Positions 7,150-55,028 of a stretch of DNA of 55,258 nt are shown here, one piece after another (positions within the stretch are counted from its first letter, which is position 1; each line of letters starts with the position of its first letter). Source of the stretch: Nitrospirota bacterium. GTDB taxonomy: Bacteria > Nitrospirota > Thermodesulfovibrionia > Thermodesulfovibrionales > JdFR-85. The notes under the pieces are model-generated. The model was not told the DNA's origin. It made no database searches and saw nothing but the letters and a program-made list of their open reading frames with translations. The position numbers and the translations under genes are program-made. The stretch is taken from positions 1-55,258 of the forward strand of contig QIJG01000050.1 of NCBI GenBank assembly GCA_003232715.1, given 5' to 3'.

Positions 7150-8196
7150 TTATACAGAGTTTACAATCTCTCCGGCAATCTCTTCTACCGGAATAACCTT
7201 GTCGGCAATTCCAGCTTCTACCACAACCTTTGGCATTCCATAAACAACACACGTTTCTTTATCCTGGGCAAGTGTCTTTCCATTATTTTTTTTGATCATT
7301 TCCATGCCCTTTAGCCCGTCATTTCCCATGCCTGTCAGAATGACACCGAGAGTTCTGCCAGGGAATGCTTCTGTTGCAGAGAGCATCAATATGTCAACGG
7401 AGGGCTTATAAATATGCTTTCCCTCATTTCCATCAACTATATCAGCAACTACTTCAAAGGTCCTTTTTCTGATGATCCTCAGGTGCTTTCCTCCGGGGGC
7501 TACCAGCACAACCCCGGGTTGTAAAGGCTCACCATGCTCTGCTTCTTTAACAGTGACCTTACATATGGAATTTAACCGTTCAGCAAAAGGGCCTGTGAAA
7601 CTTGGCGGCATATGCTGTGCTATTACAATACATACAGGGAAGTCTTCAGGCATATCAGGGAGTATTTCCTGGAGTGCCCTGGGTCCACCGGTAGAGCTGC
7701 CGATAGCCACTACTGCAATCTTTCTCTGACCCTCAAATGTCCTTTTAGGTATAACTATTTTTTGCCGTCCCTGCCTTTTCCTGACGAGCCCTTTTTTACC
7801 TATAGCTTTCAGTTTTTCCAGGAGTTGTTTGCGTATGTCCAGGATATTTACCGAGAGGTCGGCAAGATTTTTTGGAATAAAGTCTACTGCTCCTGCATCA
7901 AGAGCTTCAAGTGTGATTTCGGCACCATCTGAAGTAAGGGAACTCACCATCAGAACCGGGACAGGGTTTATATCCATAATGATTCTGAGTGCCTCAAGTC
8001 CATTCATTCTTGGCATCTCTACATCGAGGGTAACAATGTCCGGTTTGAGACTGTTAACTTTATCAATAGCCTCAACGCCATCTCTTGCAGTAGCTATGAC
8101 CTGCAGTTCAGGGTCTGATGATATCATTTTTGAGAGTGCGTTGCGCATAAACGCCGAATCGTCAACTATGAGGACTTTTATTTTTTTGTCATGCAT
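7150..8196 (-). CDS. cheB: Chemotaxis methylesterase/response regulator CheB
   Basis: Receiver (KVLIVDDSAFMR...IVTLDVEMPRMNG) plus esterase (IGSSTGGPRAL, IAQHMPP, GMGNDG). The ATG at 8196 overlaps the cheA stop (ATGCATGA); the ORF-track start at 8217 is TTG. Confidence 0.9.
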   Translation of the reverse strand: MHDKKIKVLIVDDSAFMRNALSKMISSDPELQVIATARDGVEAIDKVNSLKPDIVTLDVEMPRMNGLEALRIIMDINPVPVLMVSSLTSDGAEITLEALDAGAVDFIPKNLADLSVNILDIRKQLLEKLKAIGKKGLVRKRQGRQKIVIPKRTFEGQRKIAVVAIGSSTGGPRALQEILPDMPEDFPVCIVIAQHMPPSFTGPFAERLNSICKVTVKEAEHGEPLQPGVVLVAPGGKHLRIIRKRTFEVVADIVDGNEGKHIYKPSVDILMLSATEAFPGRTLGVILTGMGNDGLKGMEMIKKNNGKTLAQDKETCVVYGMPKVVVEAGIADKVIPVEEIAGEIVNSV

Positions 8197-9973
8197 ATGT
8201 GAGTGTTCCTGTAGCAAGGGATTCCATTATTATGGAGACGTCAATTATCAGTACTACCCTTCCATCTCCTGCAATGGTGGCTCCGGCAATGATATTGGTA
8301 TCATTGAGGTTGACGAGATTGCCTTCAACTGCCTTTATAACCGCTTCTTCCTGTCCCTTAAGCCTGTCTACAGCCAATCCGAATTTTTTGTCGTTGGCCG
8401 TGGCTACTACGACATAAAGTGTTACCGGAGCCATTGGTGGAGAAGTTCCGAAAAGTTTTGCAAGCCTGATAATCGGCAGGACCTCTCCCCTCAGTTGTAT
8501 TACTTCCTGAGAGTTAACGGTGTGAATGTCTTGTGCCGTGACTCTTACAGTCTCCAGAACAGCCCCGAGCGGGATGGCATAGACCTCTTCTGCTGCCTCG
8601 ACCATAAGGGTCTGTATGATTGCAAGCGTGAGGGGAAACCTGATTATAAACCGTGAGCCCTTTCCTTTTTCAGTCAATATCTCAATAGTCCCGTTCAGCT
8701 TGCTGATGTTTGTCTTGACAACATCCATTCCAACGCCTCTGCCTGATATATCAGTTATCTCATTTGCTGTGGAAAACCCGGGGGTAAACAGGAGGTCGAG
8801 GACTTCCTTGCCGGATAGTGTCATGGCCTCCGGCTGCGTTATGATCTCCTTTTCCACCGCTTTCTGCCGTATGATATCCGGGTCCATCCCACGGCCATTA
8901 TCTTCTATTTCTATTACTATGTTGTTGCCTTCCTGGGACGCAGAAAATTTTACGGTTCCCTGAGCCGGCTTGCCGGCGCTTTGCCTTTCTTCAGGCAACT
9001 CAATGCCATGATCGAGAGCGTTTCTTACGAGATGGACAAGCGGATCTGCTATATTTTCAATTACCGACTTGTCCACCTCTGTTTCTTCACCGCTTATGAT
9101 GAGTTCCACTTCCTTTCCCCTTGATCGGGCGAGGTCCCTTACCATCCTTGGAAACTTGTTAAAGACCTTCTTCATAGGCTGCATCCTTGTTTTCATAACA
9201 GCTATCTGGAGGTCCGTGGTTATGATGCTGAGAAAGGCTGTGGTTTCAGACAGCATGGAGGTCTCATGGTCTTCGGGATGTCTTGTTTCAAGATTTGATG
9301 TTATCTTCATCAGCCTGTTTCTGCCGAGGACAAGTTCTCCAACGAGGTTAAGCACGTTATCAAGGCGTTCAATGTCCACACGCAGGGTCTGTTCGACATG
9401 AACCTTTTCTTTCTCAGGTGGATCTCCGGATGGTTCCTGTTCCGTGTTGCTCTCCTTTTGGGGTGACGCCTGAGAGTTTTCATCGGGAGTGATTGTTTCC
9501 GTCTCTTTGGTCTGACCTGGAACGGGTTTTTCTTCTTCTGCCGGAGGTCCGTCTTCCGTCCGGGCCCCATCCCCGGGATCCGTTGACTCCCCCTTTTCAA
9601 TGGCCTGCAACTTTGAAACAATGCTGTTTAGGTCCTCTTCCTTACCGTCTTTCTCCTTTATGTGCTCCAACAGCAGTTTCATCAGGTCTACGGAGTCGAG
9701 TATTACGTCCATGATATGGGGGGTCACCTGCAGGATGCCGTCTTTCAGCTTTTTCAGTATGTTCTCTGCCGTATGGGTGAGCTCCACCAACTGGTTGTAG
9801 CCGAGAAACCCCGAGGCCCCCTTCAGGGTATGAATGCTGCGGAATATCTCGTTAAGCAGGTCCTGGTTCGAACGGTCCTTTTCCAGGTCGACAAATTTTT
9901 CATCAAGAGCATCGAGTATCTCCTGAGTCTCGATAATGAAATCCTGTATTATCTCTTCCATTTCATCAGACAT
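8189..9973 (-). CDS. cheA: Chemotaxis histidine kinase CheA (Hpt-linker-dimerisation-HATPase-CheW-like; no evident P2 domain)
   Basis: Hpt motif FRSIHTLKGASG, G1 IEDNGRGMD, G2 GRGVGMDVV and a C-terminal CheW-like domain. A Pro/Glu/Thr-rich linker replaces P2. Confidence 0.9.
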   Translation of the reverse strand: MSDEMEEIIQDFIIETQEILDALDEKFVDLEKDRSNQDLLNEIFRSIHTLKGASGFLGYNQLVELTHTAENILKKLKDGILQVTPHIMDVILDSVDLMKLLLEHIKEKDGKEEDLNSIVSKLQAIEKGESTDPGDGARTEDGPPAEEEKPVPGQTKETETITPDENSQASPQKESNTEQEPSGDPPEKEKVHVEQTLRVDIERLDNVLNLVGELVLGRNRLMKITSNLETRHPEDHETSMLSETTAFLSIITTDLQIAVMKTRMQPMKKVFNKFPRMVRDLARSRGKEVELIISGEETEVDKSVIENIADPLVHLVRNALDHGIELPEERQSAGKPAQGTVKFSASQEGNNIVIEIEDNGRGMDPDIIRQKAVEKEIITQPEAMTLSGKEVLDLLFTPGFSTANEITDISGRGVGMDVVKTNISKLNGTIEILTEKGKGSRFIIRFPLTLAIIQTLMVEAAEEVYAIPLGAVLETVRVTAQDIHTVNSQEVIQLRGEVLPIIRLAKLFGTSPPMAPVTLYVVVATANDKKFGLAVDRLKGQEEAVIKAVEGNLVNLNDTNIIAGATIAGDGRVVLIIDVSIIMESLATGTLTYA

Positions 9974-13528: not shown

Positions 13529-13555
13529 GTATCGGACTGTGAGTCGGAAACTTTA
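13529..13555 (-). promoter_or_regulatory. Candidate sigma-28-type promoter overlapping the fliA stop codon
   Basis: The minus strand reads TAAAGTTT-N11-TCCGATAC. The TAA of TAAA is the fliA stop. The -10 element ends about 10 nt before the HEAT-protein ATG (13519), which has no visible Shine-Dalgarno sequence. Confidence 0.4.
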
Positions 13556-14302
13556 ATCACCGGTTGTTTCCTCAATATAGGCCCTCATGCTGATAACGGC
13601 CTGACTGTGAAGTTGAGACACTCTTGATTCAGAGATGCCCAGGACCTTCCCGATCTCTTTAAAGGTAATCTCCTCCCAGTAATAGAGTGAGAGGATGATT
13701 TTTTCCCGTTCCGGCAACCTCTCCATGGCTTTCACCAGATGGCCTTTAATATCAGCCTTCTCGATGAGTGCGAGAGGATCATCTGCATTCCGGTCGCGGA
13801 TATGTTCATATATATTGTACTCTCCGTCTCCGCCTTGCCCGACCCTGTATGAGATATCTTCAAGACTTATTGTCACCGACCCGTTTGCATCCTGAAGCAA
13901 CTTGAAGAGTTCATCGGGCTCAATTCCGAGTTCCTCTGTAACCTCTTCTTCGGAAGGAGGACGTTCAAGTTTCTGTTCCAGACGGCGGTATGCTGATTTA
14001 AGGTTGTTTATCTTTTTCTGAAGCTGTTTTGGTGCCCATTCAGCAGACCTCAGTTCATCAAGCATTGCCCCTTTTATCCTGTATTCGGAATAGGTCTTTA
14101 TATTTGTGTATCTTGAAGGGTCGTACCTTTCAATTGCATCAAGCAGTCCTATCACGCCTACACTTAAGAGATCATCTATTGTAAGTTGTGGTGATAGTCT
14201 CCAGGCAAGCCTGTAAGCAGTATATTTTATGTACGGAAGCATATCCTTCAGGACGGCTTCTTTTTCTTCCTCTGTAGTGATGGTCTTATACCCTTGTATC
14301 AT
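13553..14302 (-). CDS. fliA: Flagellar sigma factor FliA (sigma-28)
   Basis: Sigma-70 family regions 2-4 (VGVIGLLDAIERYDP; region 4.2 TFKEIGKVLGISESRVSQLHSQA). Position after flhFG. Confidence 0.9.
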   Translation of the reverse strand: MIQGYKTITTEEEKEAVLKDMLPYIKYTAYRLAWRLSPQLTIDDLLSVGVIGLLDAIERYDPSRYTNIKTYSEYRIKGAMLDELRSAEWAPKQLQKKINNLKSAYRRLEQKLERPPSEEEVTEELGIEPDELFKLLQDANGSVTISLEDISYRVGQGGDGEYNIYEHIRDRNADDPLALIEKADIKGHLVKAMERLPEREKIILSLYYWEEITFKEIGKVLGISESRVSQLHSQAVISMRAYIEETTGD

Positions 14303-15125: not shown

Positions 15126-16135
15126 TCTTCCACTCCTTTTTCCAGTATGAGTTTTGCAAGTGTATTATTGTCTGGAAACTCTATATCCATTGGGATACGT
15201 TGTCCGGTGGTAATATAGGCAACAGGTTTTTGATACAGGACGGACAGATTGTAGATGGAACCCGCATTAACTGCCTCATCTACCTTTGTAAAGCCGAGAC
15301 AATCGATTTTGAGCTGCCTGTAATATTTATATGCATCAATCATAAAGATATCATCACTGCTTGTGCTCATGATCAGATGTGTCTCTATCGGGAGACCAAG
15401 GGTATGAATCTTTCGGATTTCTTCAATATATTTTTTATCCCTGGGATTTCTCCCGGTCGTATCAATAAATATCATGTCGCGGCCGGTATGTTTAATCACC
15501 TTGTCTTTCAGGCCGGAGATATCAGATACCACCTCCAGGGGAACTCCCAGAATCCTTGCAAAAAACCTGAGCTGCTCAACTGCACCAATGCGGTATGTAT
15601 CAAGTGTTATGATGGCAATCCTCTTGCCTGACCGTATTGCCTGGGAGGCAAGTTTGGCCAGTGTGGTGGTTTTCCCAACGCCGGTGGGGCCTATGAGCAT
15701 CACTGCTTTTTTAGCAGATGGTGCATCCATGGTCTTTATCTCCTCTGTCAGGACATTCAGGAGGGACTCAGCGTTTCCTGCCTTCTCACATAGCCTCAGT
15801 GCGAATTCTTCCTTAACGGACCTTTTTAGCAGCAGTTTCAGTATTTTGAGTTTTTTATCCGGAAGTTTCATCTCATATCCGCTCTTCTTCATCTGGACGA
15901 GGGCCTCTTTCAGCCGTTCGACCTCGCTTTTGAGTTCCGAGAGGTCTGTTGGTTTTTCAGTGGCACAGGACGGTTCAGAGATGTTTATCCCTTCATAGTC
16001 CACTGCTGCAACGACCTCGACCATATCTTCTTTAAGTTGTTCTGATGAGAGAATTACTGCATCGGGGCCCAGTTCTTTCTTTACCATCTTGAGTACCACG
16101 GAAAAAGTCTTCGCATGGAATTTTTTAATCTTCAT
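15122..16135 (-). CDS. flhF: SRP-type GTPase FlhF
   Basis: GPTGVGKTTTLAKLA, IDTTGRNPRD, GFTKVDE (G1, G3 and G4 boxes). Confidence 0.9.
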   Translation of the reverse strand: MKIKKFHAKTFSVVLKMVKKELGPDAVILSSEQLKEDMVEVVAAVDYEGINISEPSCATEKPTDLSELKSEVERLKEALVQMKKSGYEMKLPDKKLKILKLLLKRSVKEEFALRLCEKAGNAESLLNVLTEEIKTMDAPSAKKAVMLIGPTGVGKTTTLAKLASQAIRSGKRIAIITLDTYRIGAVEQLRFFARILGVPLEVVSDISGLKDKVIKHTGRDMIFIDTTGRNPRDKKYIEEIRKIHTLGLPIETHLIMSTSSDDIFMIDAYKYYRQLKIDCLGFTKVDEAVNAGSIYNLSVLYQKPVAYITTGQRIPMDIEFPDNNTLAKLILEKGVEE

Positions 16136-18141
16136 AGCTCACCATTCCCAGTGAATAAAGTTTTGTGTTTGATGAAATTTCATTGCTTGACAGGATGACC
16201 AGAGAGGGCATGAGCCTGTCGGCAATGTTTCTTAAATGTCTGCGTATCTGGGGAGAACAGACCAGAACCGGCTGGATATTTTTGAGCTTGTCTCCCTTCA
16301 AAGTCTTTTCAATCCCCCTCAGGAGTCGTTGCATTAATTGAGGTGACAGGCCTGTACCGTCTTCCATAGACTGGATAATTTCCCGTTCATATTGCGGGTC
16401 AAGGGTGAAGACAGGCAGGGTGCCGTCAGGGAGCATATACTGTCTGCTTATAACCCTGGAGAGGGACTGTCTGACGAGTTCTGTAAGTGTATCAGGGTCT
16501 TTTACCTTTTGACCGTGATCAAGAAGGGTTTCAAGTATAGTGACCATATCCTTGATAGGTATGCGTTCTTTAAGGAGATTCTGAAGTACTCTCTGTACCG
16601 TGCCTAACGGGAGTATGGTTGGAACAAGTTCTTCTACTATCCGAGGGTAGTTCCTTGATACATTGTCGAGAATATCCTGTGTCTCAGCCCTGCTAAGGAC
16701 CTCCCATCCATATCTCCTGAGCAGTTCTGTCAGGTGGGTGACGATGACAGTGGATGGGTCGACAACCGTATGTCCCCTGGTCTGGGCGGATTCTATTTCA
16801 CTCTCATCAATCCAGCAGGCCGGCAGGCCAAAGGCAGGTTCTTTTGTAGGGATACCCTCAACCTTCTCCTGTCCCTCATCCCCGGCCACTGCAAGCCATT
16901 TTCCTAAAAGCACTTCTCCCTTTACAATCTCAACCCCTTTTATCTGGAAACTGTATTCATGGGGTCTGAGCTGCAGATTGTCCTTTATATGAACAGGGGG
17001 GACTATAAATCCAAGTTCCTGTGCAATCTGTCTGCGCATTGCCTTGATCTTTCCAAGCATCTGTCCACCCGGTTCTTCAACAAGGGGTATCAATCCGTAG
17101 CCGATCTCAAGGCTGAGGGGATCAAGTTCGAGATACGATTCAATTGACGGTTCTGAGGGGACCTCGGCCTCCGTGGCCTCTTCCTGTACAGTGGCAGGTT
17201 TTCGGGATACCATGTATGCAATCGAGCCGGAGGTGACGGATATAATGAAAAACGGGATATGGGGCGGAACAAGGGCGAGGAGGAAAAGTACCCCGGATGC
17301 AGTTGACAGGGCCTTGGGATTAACGAATATTTGTTTTTTAACCTCATCTCCAAGGTCTGTATCGCTTCCTGCCCGGCTTACGACTATGCCTGCCGAGGTT
17401 GATACGAGCAATGCAGGTATCTGTGATACAAGTCCGTCCCCTATTGTAAGGAGCATATATGTTCTTGCGGCATCGGCGATGGGCATGCCCTTCTGAAGGA
17501 CCCCTATCAGGAGCCCTCCCATAATGTTTATCCCTGTTATAATGAGTCCTGCAATGGCATCACCCCTTACAAATTTACTCGCACCATCCATGGCCCCGTA
17601 AAAATCCGCTTCATGAGAAATGGTTTCGCGTCTCCTCGTCTATAAGACCGGCATTCAGGTCGGCATCTATTGCCATCTGTTTGCCGGGCATGGCATCCAG
17701 GGTAAATCTTGCCGCCACCTCGGCGATCCTGCCTGCCCCTTTTGTAATAACTATAAAGTTGATAATCACAAGGATCAGAAATACGATAAGCCCTACTGCA
17801 TAATTACCGCCAACAACAAAATTGCCGAATGATTTTATTACACGGCCTGCGGCTTCCGGGCCTTCATTTCCCTTTAGGAGTATTATTCTTGTTGTTGCAA
17901 TATTGAGAGACAGCCTGTAGAGGGTGACCATAAGCAGGAGAGACGGGAAGACCGAAAAATCAAGGGGTTTTTTAATATAGACAGATGTAAGAAGTATCAC
18001 GATTGCAATGGATATGGATATGGACAGAAATATATCAAGGGCAAAGGCGGGTACCGGCAAAAGCATTATCCCCAGGACTACCACCATACTTAGCGCCAGG
18101 GCCATGTCACTGCGATTTTTTAGAAAGTTTAAGCGGTTCAT
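16125..18141 (-). pseudogene. flhA: Flagellar export gate FlhA, split into two ORFs by a frameshift (17611-18141 N-terminal TM part; 16125-17591 remainder)
   Basis: The 176-aa ORF ends ...[32 protein letters not shown]. The conserved continuation [29 protein letters not shown] is readable in another frame immediately afterwards. The two ORFs are in different frames (18141-17591 = 550, not a multiple of 3). Confidence 0.85.
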
Positions 18142-23920: not shown

Positions 23921-24847
23921 TTATACTTTCTCATCCCCGGCAATTCTGTTGAAGAGCGTGAAGAAGCTTGGAGCAGTGGTTGTGCCGTCTTTTTCGAACA
24001 TGATAAAACACTCATTGAACCACTTGACGAACCGGTCCGCATGCTCCGAGGTGTTTACCGGGTATTGACGCATCTTCCAGCGATTCTCCTCGCTGTCGTT
24101 GTAGTAAAGACTTCCGGCGTTATAGGCACAGGCGACCTTTGGTGGATCGAGGTGTGTAACCTTCCACTGCTGTGCGATAAGTGCGGTTCCCACACTTATC
24201 GAGTTCTGCGGTGCCAGCAGCCATTTCCTGTCTATGCTGTCGTCGCCGAGGACGTCCCTTGCCGTTGAGATGAGTGTCTGCATGAGGCCCGGGGAGACCT
24301 TGTCAGGGGTGTGTTCATCCGATATGTAGCCAGGCTCTTTTCTCACTGCGGCAGGGTCCCCCCTTGTCTCGGTAGATATAGTCGCTATTATAAGCTCTAC
24401 AGGCACTCCGAACTCCTGTGCCCATTCCTCTATTGCCGGCCTGAAGTCGTTCCACACACGTCTCACTGTCTTTGGTTCGCCTCCGAATGTTTCAGGTGGA
24501 CCCGTTTCGATGATTACGCCCGTGTGGTCGAGGTACCACTTGACACTGTCCCTGTAAGCGTGCGGCCTTTTCAGGTCCGGGAGAAATCCGAGGACCTTGT
24601 CAATGCCCGCTTTTCTTTCTTTATCCTGAAAAAGGGCGGTCCATGTCTGCGGACCGGCAACGCCGTCAACCTTGAGGTTATGTGAGGCCTGGAAAGCACG
24701 TACAGCGGACTCTGTCATGGAACCGAAAATACCGTCAGCTTGTCCCGTTATGGCGTACCCCCGCTTCTTCAACTGTAGTTGAAGCTCGAGGACGTCTTCG
24801 CCGTACATCAGCGGAAAGTGGTACTTTAATGCACGTGTATACGGCAT
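23921..24847 (-). CDS. Peptidoglycan-binding (PG_binding_1) + SLT-type lytic transglycosylase
   Basis: N-terminal LQLQLKKRGY...DGIFGSMTESAVRAFQASHNLKVDGVAGPQTW. C-terminal family-1 SLT motifs ISTETRG (catalytic Glu context), SPGLMQT and ACAYNAGS. Confidence 0.8.
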   Translation of the reverse strand: MPYTRALKYHFPLMYGEDVLELQLQLKKRGYAITGQADGIFGSMTESAVRAFQASHNLKVDGVAGPQTWTALFQDKERKAGIDKVLGFLPDLKRPHAYRDSVKWYLDHTGVIIETGPPETFGGEPKTVRRVWNDFRPAIEEWAQEFGVPVELIIATISTETRGDPAAVRKEPGYISDEHTPDKVSPGLMQTLISTARDVLGDDSIDRKWLLAPQNSISVGTALIAQQWKVTHLDPPKVACAYNAGSLYYNDSEENRWKMRQYPVNTSEHADRFVKWFNECFIMFEKDGTTTAPSFFTLFNRIAGDEKV

Positions 24848-24874: not shown

Positions 24875-25777
24875 CTAAGAGAACAGGACATTAAGAAATC
24901 TGCCCTGGAAGAAAGCATTTAATTCCTCTTCTTCCCCGATGCTGATCATACGGCTTGGCAGGGCAGGGTGGGGAGTCCTCCCAAGGGCCCTGGCCTTTGG
25001 AATGCCACCGGGGTTGTATGGCAGTAAAGTGGCAGTAAGGCATCCGGTGTTTTTTAAGAAGTCGGCTATATCAGCAAGGTTCTGCCTGGTTGCCGTTATC
25101 CCTGGTATGAGTGGAATCCTCGGAACAACAGGGACGGGAGCGTTCTCTGCGAGGTACGTGAAGGTTTCGAGTATCAGGCTGTTGTCCCTGCCGGTGAACT
25201 CCCTGTGTCTGTCACTGTCGATGAGTTTCAGGTCAAAGAAGATCAGATCAATATAGGGGAGTAGCTTCTCATTGAACTCCTCAAGGTTGAACATTCCCGA
25301 TGTCTGAATTGCTACATGTACTCCTTCCTCCTTCAGCCTCTGCATTACCGTCCCGACGTAATCCATGGATAGTGTTGGTTCGCCTCCGGAGAATGTAACG
25401 CCGCCTCCGGAGGTCTCGTAAAAGATGCGTTCCTTCAGGAGCGTCTCCACAAGGAGATCGATATGATAATACGAACCTATTGCACTGAGTGCCGTTGAAG
25501 GGCACTCTTCGCAGCAGGCCCCGCAGGCCGTGCATTTGTCCCTGATTACCCGTCCTCCCTCCGGTCTCATCGAAATCGCCCCTTCGGGGCAGACCTCTCT
25601 GCAGCTGCCGCAACCTATGCAACGGTCTTCGTAGAAAGCGATTTCGGCTGCAGGCGAGATCGACTCGGGGTTGTGGCACCACGCACACGATAATGGACAC
25701 CCTTTCATGAAGACGGTGCTCCTGATACCGGGGCCATCGTCGAGCGCAAAGTGGCGTATATCGAATATCAGGGGCAT
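24875..25777 (-). CDS. Glycyl-radical enzyme activating protein (radical SAM with two extra 4Fe-4S motifs)
   Basis: CX3CX2C (GCPLSCAWCHNPE) plus CIGCGSCREVCP and CTACGACCEECP. Same operon as the GRE. Confidence 0.9.
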   Translation of the reverse strand: MPLIFDIRHFALDDGPGIRSTVFMKGCPLSCAWCHNPESISPAAEIAFYEDRCIGCGSCREVCPEGAISMRPEGGRVIRDKCTACGACCEECPSTALSAIGSYYHIDLLVETLLKERIFYETSGGGVTFSGGEPTLSMDYVGTVMQRLKEEGVHVAIQTSGMFNLEEFNEKLLPYIDLIFFDLKLIDSDRHREFTGRDNSLILETFTYLAENAPVPVVPRIPLIPGITATRQNLADIADFLKNTGCLTATLLPYNPGGIPKARALGRTPHPALPSRMISIGEEEELNAFFQGRFLNVLFS

Positions 25778-25778
25778 A

Positions 25779-26240
25779 TTATGCTTCTCCTGTGGCGATC
25801 AGCTGGAGCCGTTTGGCCATGTAGGCGAATTTGTATACGTAGTTGAGATTACCGTTGAAGGTCACATCCTGTCTCAGGAGGGATCCGAGGATGTCGGGTT
25901 TCGGTGAGAGGAGATAGCCCATAAGGGCCCTTCCGTTTCTGAAGACCACGGTGACATTCGTATCCTTTAGTTCCTTCTCGCAGACCTTCATCCTGTTGTC
26001 CTTGAATGTTACGGCCACGGTTATACTGTTGTCACGGCTCTTGAAGAGGTACCGGCCGTTAAACCCCTTTATGTTCCGTCTGAAATCCCTGTTCAGGAAA
26101 AAGGCAAGGCTCATGAATTTCAGTAGCATCTCCAGGAATTCTTCGGCCGCTTCGGATTCTAGGCACTGCAGAAACCTCTTTCTGAGCCTTTTTGCCCTGA
26201 GAGGCCGAAGCAGCAACCAGTTCTGTATCTTCTCAAACAT
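25779..26240 (-). CDS. Hypothetical 153-aa protein between GRE and activase (weak SCP2-like impression)
   Basis: Tightly packed, 1 nt from the activase start and 27 nt from the GRE stop. The C-terminal pattern ...DILGSLLRQDVTFNGNLNYVYKFAYM is reminiscent of SCP2 folds. No firm motif. Confidence 0.45.
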   Translation of the reverse strand: MFEKIQNWLLLRPLRAKRLRKRFLQCLESEAAEEFLEMLLKFMSLAFFLNRDFRRNIKGFNGRYLFKSRDNSITVAVTFKDNRMKVCEKELKDTNVTVVFRNGRALMGYLLSPKPDILGSLLRQDVTFNGNLNYVYKFAYMAKRLQLIATGEA

Positions 26241-26267
26241 TTTTGCCTCCTTGTCGGTCTCTTCTCT

Positions 26268-37381: not shown

Positions 37382-40126
37382 TCAGGGGTTCAGGCTGAAT
37401 CCCTTCAGTGCCGTTGCTAATACGGTCTTCCCTGTAACCGATGTTTTTATTGTGCTTATATTGTTTGAAAGGGATGCCCTGATGTCATTATTCTTTATAA
37501 ATGAAGTGCTGTTGCGCGCTTTCTCAATCAATTTCTCCTCCTGGGAACCACTGGCTATGTCTCCTTCTTTTTTACTCACATTTATGATCGTGTTTTTGAC
37601 TGTCTCAGCTATCATCTTGTCCAGTTCGTGCCGCATCCTCTTTTCTTCCTCTGTGGCCGTGCCCGAAGCGATCTTTACCTCATAGGCCCTGGCAGTTTTT
37701 GTCAAGCCGTCAAGGGCATCAGCTTCAGCCTTCAATCCGGGGTCGGTGTATGTAGATACGACTCCGGGATTGACCTTTGCCTGCATCAGGTTGCCGATGA
37801 TTGTGTTCAGGCTGCCTGAGTATGCCTGTGTTATCGACTTGGCCTGAGTGTCTATTATGAACTTCAGGTCTTCGTATTTTTGACCGATTTTCTCGTCTAT
37901 CGACTTGATCTTTTCCTCAAGGTAGCCCTCTTTACTCGGGTGCACCAGGATCTCGTTCAGGTCCGTCCATTTTTTTCTTCCATCGGAGTCTTCTGCCATG
38001 GCCTCCTCTTCTTCCACTGTGGGCTTACAGCACTGGTATGGCATGGAGAAATCCGCAATCACCTTATTGGCAGCGGATGAGTATACAAGGACAAAAGTGC
38101 CTCCCCCTTCAGCCCCTCCGGTATGCTCCATACCTGGATTTTCCTCGAGGAACCTGGCAAACAATGAGAGTTCCTTTGATTTCTTCTCTCTTTTCTTCAG
38201 TATACCGTCTATCCATTCAAACCACTTGAACTTTGTGTTGTTCACAAGGGTTTCATAAGGTGTGTAGGCTGAATTATATGTGACGCCCTTTATGTTCTTA
38301 TTTATGATTGAAGCTGTCTCGACCGCCGAAGTATATGTCTTTATAAATCCGGGTTGATCGAATTCGTCAAGGTTTTTGTTCAGTTTTCCCTTGATTTCCT
38401 GAAGCTGTTCTTTCAGGATGCCGGCGCTGTCACTCGTCACTGCCTTGATGGAAGCCGTTGTGTTTGTTACAGACTTTGGAGGCAACTCCCCGGATCCCTG
38501 GATTATCTCGACCACCTTGGTGTTGAAGTCTTCAACGTTCCTGATATTCTCCCTCAGGTCCTTCTTCAGAAGGAAATGCAGGGTCTTCAGGCTACCGTAT
38601 TCATAAAAAGGCTTAAGGGGGAGAATGGACAGGTCTTTTTCGATCTGGAGGGTCGTGACCTTGATCGGGAGATTGTAGCTGGTGATTATTCCCTTAAGCT
38701 CTTTTTCCGCTTCAGCGGGTTTTCTGCCGAGGTGTCCTTCTATCCTGAAGAACCTATAGTCGTCAAGGGGATAGTTCAAGGGGTTGAGCGCTCTGGCGGA
38801 TCCGTTATAAACGTCGGCATTAAAGGAGTAGAGATGGTTGTTTTTGTCCCTTCTGTTCAGCTCGTAGTTCCAGTGCCGGTGCAAGGGATTATTTTTGAGG
38901 ATCTTGTAGTAGTAGGGTATGGCCCTTGAGCCCAAACGGGCTTCCGGCTTGCTGGGAGTGACCTTGATGTCCTTGCCCGATGCCGGGACGTTGAAGCTCC
39001 TGATCATGGAGTCCATGCGTTTATGCAGGAACCGGGCCTTTTCCCATAGAGGGGATTTCCTGTTAAGGAGAGGGGACTTGTAGAATTGGTGACGGAAAGG
39101 ATCAGACGGCAGACGTTGATCCACGGCGGTGAGGCTGCCGAGTATCACATGTTTTGGGAAAAGCTTCACGTCAGGACAACAGACTGCATTATCTTCGAAG
39201 AGGGTATCCTTGAACTCCTTATAAGCCGATGCTATGTCCTTTATGAAGTCATAGACGTACTGTATCCCGTGGTCGTCTTCCTCGATCCTTTCATCGAGTT
39301 GCGTGAAGGTCTTTTCCCAGGCTTCGGATGGATCGTTGCTGTAAACATTTTTCAACAGTGGTTCACAGGCCTGATAGCTGCCGGTGATTATTTTTGCTGT
39401 GTTGTTGATGAATTTCTTGATAACATTTCTGTAGCCGGAGGCCAGGTCACTGTAGGTACTGATATCCCGCGGGGATATCAGTACCCTTTCACAGTCGATC
39501 TCTTTGAGCCTGGAGTAAAACCGGTTTGCGGTCTGGGCCTGATCTATGAGGGACTTGAGGTCGGACCTGAAGACGAGGAGCACCCGCAGGTTGTTTCTCT
39601 GCTCCTTGCCCTTGTTGTCACAGTCGCTTCCTGTGCATATGCCGGGATCGTGGACGTAGCTCTCAAGATAGAGCAGCAAGGCCATTGCATCCATTTTCTT
39701 TCCCGTCTCATCTTCAAAGGCGTTCAATTTTTTTGCTCCCTGGTCTGCATCGGGCAGTAATTCGAAGAGGGGGATCTGTTTCTGGTTCTGGATAAAATAT
39801 GGATACGAGGCGATCCTGTCTTTAAAGGCCTTGAAGTATTTGAATGCCCTGTCCTTGTCGAATGTGAGCAGATCTCCGTCAGTGGTGATAGCGCTCCCCT
39901 TTGTAATGGTGATGGACTTTGCAGCACTGATACCCTTCATCGGATACTTGACCTCAAGGCCGCACACAATACCTGCACCCGTCAGTTTCACCCTTGAAAG
40001 CCGGTACTCCCTGTCAAGGTATTCGGTAATGTTGTTAAGCTGCCCGGATGTCAGCACCTGGTCTTCTTCAAAGACCGGGTAAGAAGTCACCGTAGGTTCC
40101 GAGAGCTTATAGGATTTGTTTGCCAT
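37382..40126 (-). CDS. Hypothetical 914-aa CIS protein in the tail-fibre (Afp13) position
   Basis: Lies between the gp7/Afp12-like and tape-measure genes with gaps of 5 and 29 nt. The N-terminus ...VFEEDQVLTSGQLNNITEYLDREYRLSRVKLTGAGIVCGLEV recalls a conserved CIS baseplate-associated family. No fibre-type repeats are visible. Confidence 0.45.
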   Translation of the reverse strand: MANKSYKLSEPTVTSYPVFEEDQVLTSGQLNNITEYLDREYRLSRVKLTGAGIVCGLEVKYPMKGISAAKSITITKGSAITTDGDLLTFDKDRAFKYFKAFKDRIASYPYFIQNQKQIPLFELLPDADQGAKKLNAFEDETGKKMDAMALLLYLESYVHDPGICTGSDCDNKGKEQRNNLRVLLVFRSDLKSLIDQAQTANRFYSRLKEIDCERVLISPRDISTYSDLASGYRNVIKKFINNTAKIITGSYQACEPLLKNVYSNDPSEAWEKTFTQLDERIEEDDHGIQYVYDFIKDIASAYKEFKDTLFEDNAVCCPDVKLFPKHVILGSLTAVDQRLPSDPFRHQFYKSPLLNRKSPLWEKARFLHKRMDSMIRSFNVPASGKDIKVTPSKPEARLGSRAIPYYYKILKNNPLHRHWNYELNRRDKNNHLYSFNADVYNGSARALNPLNYPLDDYRFFRIEGHLGRKPAEAEKELKGIITSYNLPIKVTTLQIEKDLSILPLKPFYEYGSLKTLHFLLKKDLRENIRNVEDFNTKVVEIIQGSGELPPKSVTNTTASIKAVTSDSAGILKEQLQEIKGKLNKNLDEFDQPGFIKTYTSAVETASIINKNIKGVTYNSAYTPYETLVNNTKFKWFEWIDGILKKREKKSKELSLFARFLEENPGMEHTGGAEGGGTFVLVYSSAANKVIADFSMPYQCCKPTVEEEEAMAEDSDGRKKWTDLNEILVHPSKEGYLEEKIKSIDEKIGQKYEDLKFIIDTQAKSITQAYSGSLNTIIGNLMQAKVNPGVVSTYTDPGLKAEADALDGLTKTARAYEVKIASGTATEEEKRMRHELDKMIAETVKNTIINVSKKEGDIASGSQEEKLIEKARNSTSFIKNNDIRASLSNNISTIKTSVTGKTVLATALKGFSLNP

Positions 40127-53300: not shown

Positions 53301-53879
53301 TCAGCTCCTCCTGTCCGAGAGATTCATAATCCTGACAGGGGGCTGTTCGTCCGTTATAAGTGTCTCCTGGATTGTCAGCATCCGAATCTTGTACATGACC
53401 GAAGGGAGGTACTTTGCCCCCAGTGCTCCCCATATATGGTTCTGTTGTTCAAAACTTAGAGTGAAGAGCTCGGCGATCAGTTTTTCAATAGACTGATCAA
53501 GACCCGGTGTGTTCTGGGGGTTGAATACGTTTTTGCCCTGGAAAAAGCGTATCGCCCCTGACAAGAATCCGAGGCCAGTACTGTATTTGTTGAAATTGGC
53601 GGTAATCAGGACGTAAAGGTTGAGCTTTATGGCCGGGTTCAGGTGTGAGACCTGTCCTTCTGATGTGAGGGTGGTGGCTTGCCGGGATTTCACCATCCTT
53701 TCTTCCTCAACGTTGACTAAAGTCAGCCCCAGGGAGTTGTCAGGGACGGCGATGTCACCGTTGAACTTGACTATCGGCGTTATATGGACTACGGTCTCAC
53801 TCGTTACGTTCAGCTCGGGCAGTCGAACAAGGTAGTCGTGGATCTCTTTCTTTAAGACCTCTAAAGCCTTGTCAATCAT
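53301..53879 (-). CDS. DUF4255/Pvc16_N-like tube-sheath terminator (cap) protein
   Basis: 192 aa and the first gene of the operon. LGLTLVNVEEERMVKSRQ... and ...LNLYVLITANF patterns match my recollection of DUF4255. The cap-first order is typical of one eCIS lineage. Confidence 0.7.
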   Translation of the reverse strand: MIDKALEVLKKEIHDYLVRLPELNVTSETVVHITPIVKFNGDIAVPDNSLGLTLVNVEEERMVKSRQATTLTSEGQVSHLNPAIKLNLYVLITANFNKYSTGLGFLSGAIRFFQGKNVFNPQNTPGLDQSIEKLIAELFTLSFEQQNHIWGALGAKYLPSVMYKIRMLTIQETLITDEQPPVRIMNLSDRRS

Positions 53880-53977
53880 CTCTGTCCTTAGTTTTTAAGT
53901 TTTTTTAATCGGGTTAAGTGTTTTCTTATCCAGTTAAGTCATTTCATTGCGTAAATGAGTTTAGCATATTTAACCTG

Positions 53978-54027
53978 TAAATTCTTGACCTATTTTGTCT
54001 TTTTTTTGACCTATCTTGCAGGGAAGG
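53978..54027 (-). promoter_or_regulatory. Copy B of the shared block: two TTGACCTRTYTTG direct repeats 21 bp apart, upstream of the CIS operon
   Basis: TTGACC at 53985 and 54006. A -10-like TAAACT (minus strand, 53958-53963) lies about 20 nt beyond the proximal repeat. The CIS ATG at 53879 is about 80 nt further on. The block sits between the AraC-type regulator gene and the operon. Confidence 0.55.
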
Positions 54028-54221
54028 GTGGGCTTGTCAATAAGTGTGTAAAAGCCATTTGGGGGATTAGTGGTGGATAAGGCATATGTGATAATTTAAA
54101 CGGGTGTGCTAGGGCAGTAACGACATTACGATTAATCTGTTTTTATTCCTTGCATTGGGATGTTCTCCAGCCCGTTTAATTCCTCTATTCCGCTTCCTTT
54201 CCAATAGCGGGGCCGGTGCGG

Positions 54222-55028
54222 TCAGTTAAGGCTGTAGCCCTTCGGTTTTTCTTTGCATAAGTGCTTGAAGTGAGAGAGGGGGCTCTTCTTTTTCCGTAGC
54301 GACTTTTTGTAAACCCTAGGAGAGGCCTTCATTATCCGCTTGAACATCCTTGTGAAGTGAAACTGGTTCGTAAAACCACAGGCAAAGGCTATGTCGCTCA
54401 TGGAAAGGCCGTTCTCCCTGAGCATCTTTATCGCCTTCGAGATGCGGAGCCTGTTTACATACAAGGTAAAGGTAATGCCCATTTCCCTCTTAAAGGTCCT
54501 TCCAAAGCAGGAGATACTCATTCCGGACTCCCGGGCGATCTCGGAGAGTTTTATCTGGAAGGTGTATCTCTCATTTATATACCTGATCGCCCTGAACAGC
54601 CCATTCCATGGCTTCTCCAGTTCTTCTTCTCCCAAGACCTCCTTGATGCACAGGGCCCTGAGAATGCTCTTCTTTAAATCCTGCATAGCCAGCGGCTTCC
54701 TGAAGTAGTCCCTTGCACCGAAACGGAATACCGTAACGGCAAGTGCAAGTTCTTCAGAGCCACAATCCGTCAATATTATTACAGGCACAGAGGGCTTGAC
54801 GGACTTGAAGAACTGAAGGAGTTCAGTGCAGGAATGCTTCCCGGAGTGATCCAGAAGCACAAGATCTATCTCGTTATGCAGAAAGAAGTCGCAGGATTTG
54901 CTCTTCTCTGTATTGACGATTATTTTGCATTCCTTCAATGAAGCAGCGAGGCTTTTGTTATGCTGCCTCGCATAAGGATCTATCAGCAGTATCTGATGTT
55001 TTTCGTCCAGGGCGTAAGATGAAGTCAT
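54222..55028 (-). CDS. Response regulator with AraC/XylS-type HTH output
   Basis: Receiver (ILLIDPY..., LVLLDHSG, IILTD, YFRKP) followed by an AraC HTH (LSEIARESGMSISCFGRTFKREMGITFTLYVNRLRISKAIKML...IAFACGFTNQFHFTRMFKR). Confidence 0.85.
   Translation of the reverse strand: MTSSYALDEKHQILLIDPYARQHNKSLAASLKECKIIVNTEKSKSCDFFLHNEIDLVLLDHSGKHSCTELLQFFKSVKPSVPVIILTDCGSEELALAVTVFRFGARDYFRKPLAMQDLKKSILRALCIKEVLGEEELEKPWNGLFRAIRYINERYTFQIKLSEIARESGMSISCFGRTFKREMGITFTLYVNRLRISKAIKMLRENGLSMSDIAFACGFTNQFHFTRMFKRIMKASPRVYKKSLRKKKSPLSHFKHLCKEKPKGYSLN

Follow-up and report, generated by a model that had tools for sequence, protein, structure and literature searches.

The AraC half-sites araI1 and araI2 are phased by 21 bp in a class II layout. 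At the Pm promoter, XylS binds two direct repeats, each composed of two boxes (PMC5481539). The element described here resembles araI1-araI2 of AraC (pBAD), Pm of XylS and the sites of RhaS and MelR in having two direct half-sites on the same helix face with 21-bp phasing, and, as in AraC/XylS systems, its proximal site abuts or overlaps a -35 that is weak or missing, its putative binder has an AraC-type domain with a pair of helix-turn-helix motifs, and the putative activator gene stands beside the target. It differs from these systems in its half-site, CAAAATAGGTCAA, which is unrelated to theirs, in its spacer, which is a conserved A-tract, in the CheY-like receiver of its putative regulator, compared to a ligand-binding cupin or the XylS N-domain, and in its putative targets, which are CIS and toxin-like genes rather than catabolic operons.

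An N-terminal receiver combined with a C-terminal AraC domain is also found in response regulators of the YesN/COG4753 type, in XydR of Clostridium cellulolyticum (PMC3572039), for which no consensus site was defined, and in AraT of Geobacillus (PDB 6swi). Binding upstream of neighbouring targets, as is proposed here, is a feature of this XydR/AraT type as well. Unlike these proteins, the regulator studied here counts 268 aa instead of approximately 530 aa, has a short interdomain linker, is encoded without an adjacent histidine kinase and possesses a degenerate receiver, with one acidic pocket residue and an acceptor Asp that is not universal in the family.

How eCIS are switched on is largely unexplained, and what a survey of these systems (Geller et al. 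2021, PMC8213781) offers in this respect are regulator domains encoded beside the loci, namely of the GerE/LuxR type, BTAD and RfaH/AnfA1. The present regulator gene resembles those in the survey by its position immediately beside the eCIS operon, which it is presumed to control, and differs from them by its AraC DNA-binding family and by a nameable operator with conserved promoter geometry. A text search of the survey gave no mention of an AraC-type regulator, nor did we find an operator described for any of those it lists, and our literature search yielded no paper that links AraC-type regulators to eCIS, treats CIS regulation in Nitrospirota or describes the module. The mechanism proposed below is of a known, classical kind; the regulator family, the operator and the link to eCIS are new.

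We analysed a stretch of 55,258 nt from a Nitrospirota bacterium (hereafter the window), in which a 36-bp module between a regulator gene and a CIS gene cluster is probably the operator half of a sigma-70 activator-dependent promoter of class II, bound by the product of the adjacent regulator gene. What the sequences themselves show is how the module is built, that it is conserved and that it is linked to the regulator gene. The features concerned are the following.

54222-55028, minus strand: receiver-AraC hybrid regulator of 268 aa, characterized by Pfam, AlphaFold and Foldseek, the proposed binder of both sites.
54006-54018, minus strand: distal half-site of site A, CAAGATAGGTCAA, predicted at about -67 to -55; its GTCAA is near-invariant across the collected sites.
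53998-54005, minus strand: A-rich spacer of site A, AAAAAAGA, conserved as AARAAARN and of high information content across the collected sites.
53985-53997, minus strand: proximal half-site of site A, CAAAATAGGTCAA, with a predicted extent of about -46 to -34, next to or across the -35 position.
53978-53984, minus strand: flank of site A, GAATTTA, just 3' of the proximal half-site at the would-be -35, with an invariant GA followed by YTTA.
53958-53966, minus strand (hexamer 53963..53958): extended -10 of site A, TGCTAAACT, conserved with the related locus L004; the start predicted from it lies near 53951.
30271-53879, minus strand: complete CIS gene cluster, the putative target of site A.

All genes of the region lie on the minus strand, and the gap of 342 nt (53880-54221) is flanked by the regulator gene and by the first CIS gene (53301-53879), which encodes a Pvc16_N domain (Pfam E = 3.6e-36). 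The two copies of the repeat that the preliminary description had reported in this gap, 21 bp apart and within 53978-54027, were recovered: on the plus strand they read TTGACCTATTTTG (53985-53997) and TTGACCTATCTTG (54006-54018), with a start-to-start distance of 21 bp, and can be extended to 16 nt (53982-53997 and 54003-54018) at 88% identity. On the coding strand (54018..53985) the site reads CAAGATAGGTCAA-AAAAAAGA-CAAAATAGGTCAA, and continues up to the -10 as CAAGATAGGTCAA AAAAAAGA CAAAATAGGTCAA GAATTTACAGGTTAAATA TGC TAAACT. The -10-like TAAACT, which had been placed about 20 nt past the proximal repeat, is located at 53963..53958, 21 nt after it, and since it is preceded by TGn it is better described as an extended -10 than as the plain -10 reported before. 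A sigma-70 consensus scan of the gap returned no -35/-10 pair, in agreement with the earlier remark that a good -35 is missing. By the gap alone site A is moderately unusual, as an equally good repeat with a spacing of 10-32 occurs in 1-2% of Markov shuffles.

Searches of 53700-54400 returned no structured RNA match (Rfam, E <= 1) and no terminator-like site after the regulator gene, so that read-through from this co-directional gene could feed the CIS operon. A promoter on the plus strand, with TTGACC as an approximate -35, was rejected: there is no -10 at 16-18 nt, no downstream gene in that direction, and the consensus scan was empty. The predicted 5' UTR of the CIS operon contains a 20-nt tandem direct repeat, TTTTTTAATCGGGTTAAGTG / TTTTCTTATCCAGTTAAGTC (53901-53940, 75% identical), situated outside the sole stretch of the gap that is alignable with L004.

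When a pattern derived from site A was run over the 55-kb window, one other comparable match was found. Its two copies, at 30127-30139 and 30148-30160, differ from the pattern by at most one mismatch each (0 or 1), are again spaced by 21 bp, and have the orientation of site A and of the genes downstream. This second module (site B, 36 nt, 30160..30125) is intergenic, between the last CIS gene (30271-34326) and a gene for a 191-aa protein (29397-29972).

30148-30160, minus strand: distal half-site of site B, CAAAATAGGTCAA, by pattern scan and matrix.
30127-30139, minus strand: proximal half-site of site B, CAAAACAGGTCAA, followed by GAACTTA, by pattern scan and matrix.
30099-30107, minus strand: extended -10 of site B, TGATATTAT, 22 nt past the proximal half-site.
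24875-29972, minus strand: putative target operon of site B, encoding two paralogous membrane proteins, a PFL-like glycyl-radical enzyme, a 153-aa protein and an activase.

With a 36-nt weight matrix, sites A and B score 58.5 and 57.6 bits (both belong to the 19 sites from which the matrix was made), the next best score in the rest of the window is -1.1 bits and the maximum over 100 shuffles is 11.7. The two sites are alignable over 38 nt, with unrelated flanks and gaps that are otherwise without similarity; as only the operator is common to both, it appears to have been kept by function and not to stem from a recent duplication. A lone half-site, GAAAATCGGTCAA (37880-37892, coding strand), inside the gene for a 914-aa CIS protein was considered as a further operator and set aside as probably due to chance, because shuffled sequences reach up to 20.7 bits, more than its own 17.7.

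The homologues of the regulator retrieved by protein look-up are mainly from Nitrospirota MAGs. Beside homologues from Nitrospirota, Desulfobacterota and Deferribacterota, the module is kept in otherwise unalignable gaps, down to a regulator identity of approximately 43-45%. At L004, whose regulator is 82% identical, the GC-rich CIS gap counts 559 nt and can be aligned with that of the window over 54 nt only, from the distal GTCAA through TGCTAAACT. In three loci with regulators of 63-65% identity and a different chromosomal context (L009, L010, L026), the arrangement CAATATAGGTCAA-N8-CAATATAGGTCAA-GACTTTA is kept, and TGATAACAT lies at the same distance from the repeats as the -10 of the window. 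Four loci (L006, L007, L013, L029; 68-72% identical) contain no CIS; there, the regulator gene is directly followed by a site-B-type promoter and the membrane-protein/glycyl-radical operon. The counterpart of the site B extended -10 reads TGATACTAT / TGATAGTAT in L006, L007, L012 and L021. Two MAGs carry sites on different contigs, one before CIS and one before the membrane-protein/glycyl-radical operon, so both targets keep the operator whether linked to the regulator gene or not.

Among the loci from the protein look-up, the site follows the regulator gene directly in 7 of 8 and lies 2 kb downstream in the eighth. An unbiased set of metagenome loci was picked by the regulator protein only (26 full-length relatives, 40-63% identity), and 18 of the 26 have the module directly after the regulator gene, 10 of them as sites above 35 bits at 17-90 nt past the gene and 8 as degenerate versions. 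In most of the remaining 8 loci, which have no recognisable site, the contig is short or the next gene downstream is convergent. As a control, approximately 50 AraC-only loci (about 290 kb) yielded no site above 15 bits. We also scanned a strict pattern over 185,579 species genomes (species representatives, the source assembly not being among these) and obtained 22 loci, of which about 14 are intergenic and promoter-oriented in Nitrospirota, Desulfobacterota or Deferribacterota, the phyla in which the module occurs; several of these genomes also encode the regulator family. The other loci, inside ORFs of unrelated taxa and without the upstream CAAAA block, were read as chance matches. The preliminary description had named a common dispersed repeat as the finding that would speak against a promoter element; the motif is not of this kind, since the window holds two sites and the strict pattern yielded at most two promoter-oriented sites in each related species-representative genome. 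The spacing is 21 bp start to start at both window sites and at approximately 30 related ones, with rare 20-bp variants (L041, L049). A chance origin of the module is excluded.

The distance to the -10 was examined in 37 unique sites, counting the offset from the proximal GTCAA to the start of TAnnnT. This hexamer starts at offset 21 in 15 sites and at offset 22 in 8, together 23 of the 37, and is preceded by TGn in 20 of these; other offsets mostly hold 0-2 occurrences, apart from two minor peaks, of 5 at offset 13 and of 7 at offset 16. Relative to the predicted start, the promoter has no good -35, and the proximal site reaches up to or into the place where one would be, as in class II. A point against the proposed reading is that, within a half-site, the blocks CAAAA and GTCAA are about 8 bp apart centre to centre, whereas 10-12 bp are usual in two-box sites of the AraC family.

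Together, the phasing, the A-rich spacer and the fixed -10, conserved before the CIS operons of relatives, support the activator-dependent AraC/XylS layout put forward at the outset, and the promoter would work as follows. Two 13-bp direct half-sites (consensus CAAAATAGGTCAA), joined by an A-rich spacer, would both face one side of the helix since they are 21 bp apart, and two receiver-AraC subunits would occupy them, each by means of both helix-turn-helix motifs. The proximal half-site ends 21 nt upstream of the extended -10 (TGnTAnnnT), which, with the -10 taken as -12 to -7, would put the half-sites at the positions given above, with the -35 missing. From the proximal site, the regulator would contact or recruit RNA polymerase, that is, class II activation. 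Site B would place the membrane-protein/glycyl-radical operon under the same regulator, uniting it with the CIS cluster in one regulon, and the sequence comparisons support a predicted regulon of at least two operons in this genome.

We infer both the binder and the sign of its action, and adjacency of regulator and site amounts to guilt by association, so a first alternative is that the operator is genuine and that another protein binds it or that this regulator represses from it. Some sites are indeed unlinked to the regulator gene (L012, L021, L014, L025), which requires action in trans whichever protein binds. Against another binder speaks the position of the site, which immediately follows the 3' end of the regulator gene in 18 of the 26 metagenome loci and 7 of the 8 look-up loci, and a repressor site would be expected more often on the -10 or the start, whereas the absence of a -35 and the fixed extended -10 just past the proximal site form an activator layout. 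AraC-family proteins, moreover, are overwhelmingly activators. We therefore regard this alternative as unlikely and favour activation by the adjacent regulator.

Secondly, the two copies might be recombination or attachment-type repeats around a mobile CIS island, without regulatory function. The CIS block (approximately 54123 to 30175), which includes its own promoter, can be viewed as an insertion or deletion bracketed by two similar elements of 38 nt, and it behaves as such in comparison with L006, L007, L013 and L029, where CIS is absent and the regulator gene is followed by the site-B promoter. Against a role as recombination repeats, the module stands before unrelated genes in other phyla, always oriented as a promoter and with a constant interval to a -10; L006 does not correspond to a simple A-by-B recombinant, having 55 unique nt versus 104 in the window, and neither boundary of the CIS block carries an integrase or transposase. 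This makes the reading very improbable. Equally improbable is that GTCAA serves as a -35-like element for an alternative sigma factor (an ECF or the flagellar sigma, 13553-14302) with its duplication being incidental, as the location inside a flagellar/chemotaxis region with a FliA-like sigma factor might suggest: the 21-22 nt from GTCAA to the -10 hexamer exceed what a -35/-10 pair allows, what follows downstream is an ordinary extended -10, TGnTAnnnT, and neither GCCGATAA nor CGTC, the respective sigma-28 and ECF consensus, and a single -35 would not require that both copies and their 21-bp phasing be conserved.

Apart from the function of the repeats, the comparison with L006 gave an observation on the history of the region. 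The window shares with L006 (10820-11164) the segment 54221-54124, i.e. the 98 nt past the regulator stop, together with 30174-29979. Over 54124-54360, the last approximately 140 nt of the regulator gene and the next 98 nt are 92-98% identical to L006, compared to 47-83% in the rest of the gene. This mosaic tract, ending exactly at the boundary of the CIS block, suggests that recent recombination may have taken place there.

The assignment of the neighbouring gene to a receiver-AraC hybrid, made at first from its translation, was borne out by Pfam (HTH_18 3e-22, HTH_AraC 3e-16, Response_reg 7.5e-7), which recognizes these three domains only and hence no GerE, BTAD or NusG/RfaH domain. In the AlphaFold model (mean pLDDT 81), a short linker connects a (beta-alpha)5 receiver to an AraC domain of seven helices, and Foldseek matched the model to Spo0F (TM 0.84) and the DNA-binding domain of AdpA (TM 0.89), as well as to CheY-like receivers and to other AraC DNA-binding domains, among which the C-terminal domain of the response regulator AraT. 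As the regulator has no winged helix, the OmpR/PhoB-type layout that had been mentioned as another option was dropped; a Trans_reg_C domain is missing too, and the repeat period is 21 bp and not approximately 10-11. In an alignment of 16 homologues, the DNA-binding domain (residues about 140-268) is the best-conserved part, with nearly invariant helices around S171-F179 and Q222-F229, in keeping with the conservation of the motif.

The receiver is atypical. Its Response_reg score of 29.7 bits stays below the gathering cut-off of 30.2, compared to 80-111 bits for the other receivers in the window. The pocket retains D60, T87 and K111; after beta1, the acidic pair is reduced throughout the family to D17-P18, with one acidic residue, and the acceptor D60 is Gly or Asn in 3 of the 16 homologues. 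A sensor kinase is encoded neither in the 55-kb window, where the sole kinase is the chemotaxis protein CheA (8189-9973), nor by any gene called next to the regulator in the looked-up loci; these neighbours are flagellin or sugar-biosynthesis genes on one flank and, on the other, CIS or the operon of the 191-aa protein. Control of the regulator by phosphorylation is possible. The reduced acidic pocket, the replacement of D60 in 3 of 16 homologues, the Pfam score below cut-off and the lack of a kinase in the window nevertheless make it uncertain that the signal-dependent control suggested in the preliminary description proceeds by this route. The homologue look-up was performed with a database copy (P0001) that is 99% identical to the regulator of the window. 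At approximately 54738-54749 the window regulator has a 2-aa insertion in receiver helix alpha4, EELALAVTV as compared to EELAVTV in P0001 and all 15 aligned homologues, which looks like a 6-nt tandem duplication.

For an eCIS clade of uncultured anaerobes, the analysis provides a 36-bp operator, a predicted promoter geometry and a candidate regulator family, in a model whose testing requires no culture of the organism, since a heterologous reporter and the DNA-binding domain in purified form would do. The operator also serves as a search key for co-regulated genes and has already led to caspase-like proteases, Tc-type toxins and the membrane-protein/glycyl-radical operon. In relatives, it is found before CIS clusters that begin with an AAA ATPase (L023, L039), before a sigma-54 activator followed by CIS (L034), and upstream of genes for a caspase-like C14 protease, a papain-like C1 protease and a third ORF (L036, L037, L045, L050; L017 and L033) that was read by eye as a nuclease of the endonuclease/exonuclease/phosphatase type. 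SpvB/Tc-toxin-like proteins are encoded downstream of the operator in L014 and L049, and the second sites of L006 and L007 precede an operon including a C13 peptidase. Of these identifications, those of the C13 peptidase and of the domains in L033 and L034 are based on precomputed Pfam data, and the others were made by eye from translations.

From this gene content we tentatively propose, at somewhat less than even confidence, a master switch across Nitrospirota, Desulfobacterota and Deferribacterota, which would co-regulate CIS with antagonism and cell-death genes and, in this genome, with the glycyl-radical operon. The antagonism and cell-death set, held with the same reserve, might comprise the caspase- and papain-like proteases, the Tc/SpvB toxins, the sigma-54 activator upstream of CIS and lytic transglycosylases. 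If true, this would be the first defined eCIS transcriptional regulon outside model organisms. The sigma-54 activator at L034 (1030-2382, Nitrospirota) counts 348 aa, is receiver-less and lies upstream of the CIS cluster, an order that suggests a possible two-step regulatory cascade.

In the window itself, the CIS cluster encodes a Pvc16_N cap, sheath, two gp19-type tubes, CIS_tube, spike, gp25, baseplate J, tape measure, an AAA ATPase and, as its last gene (30271-34326), a 1351-aa protein with an Endonuclea_NS_2 domain. The first two proteins of the site-B operon, of 191 and 190 aa (28767-29972), are paralogues of approximately 35% identity that look like multi-pass membrane proteins, and this pair is always first in a glycyl-radical enzyme operon and always behind the operator. 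Pfam, NCBIfam and PDB sequence searches assigned them to no family; their homologues form 33 clusters that are without Pfam domain and that, where named, are called only 'hypothetical protein'.

A gene for a lytic transglycosylase with PG_binding and SLT domains (23921-24847) starts 27 nt past the glycyl-radical activase gene and, being so close, may belong to the site-B operon. In L014, from a Desulfobacterota MAG, the product of the gene directly behind the operator is 43% identical to this SLT protein over 61 aa, and the next gene encodes, as judged by eye, a Tc/SpvB-like toxin. A role of the transglycosylase in particle release is conceivable.

Flagellar and chemotaxis genes lie on both sides of the block formed by the regulator gene, the CIS cluster and site B. 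Among them flhA (FHIPEP, 16125-18141) is split into two ORFs, one (17611-18141) covering profile positions 1-147 and the other (16125-17591) positions 165-656, owing to a frameshift or a sequencing error or because the gene is a pseudogene.
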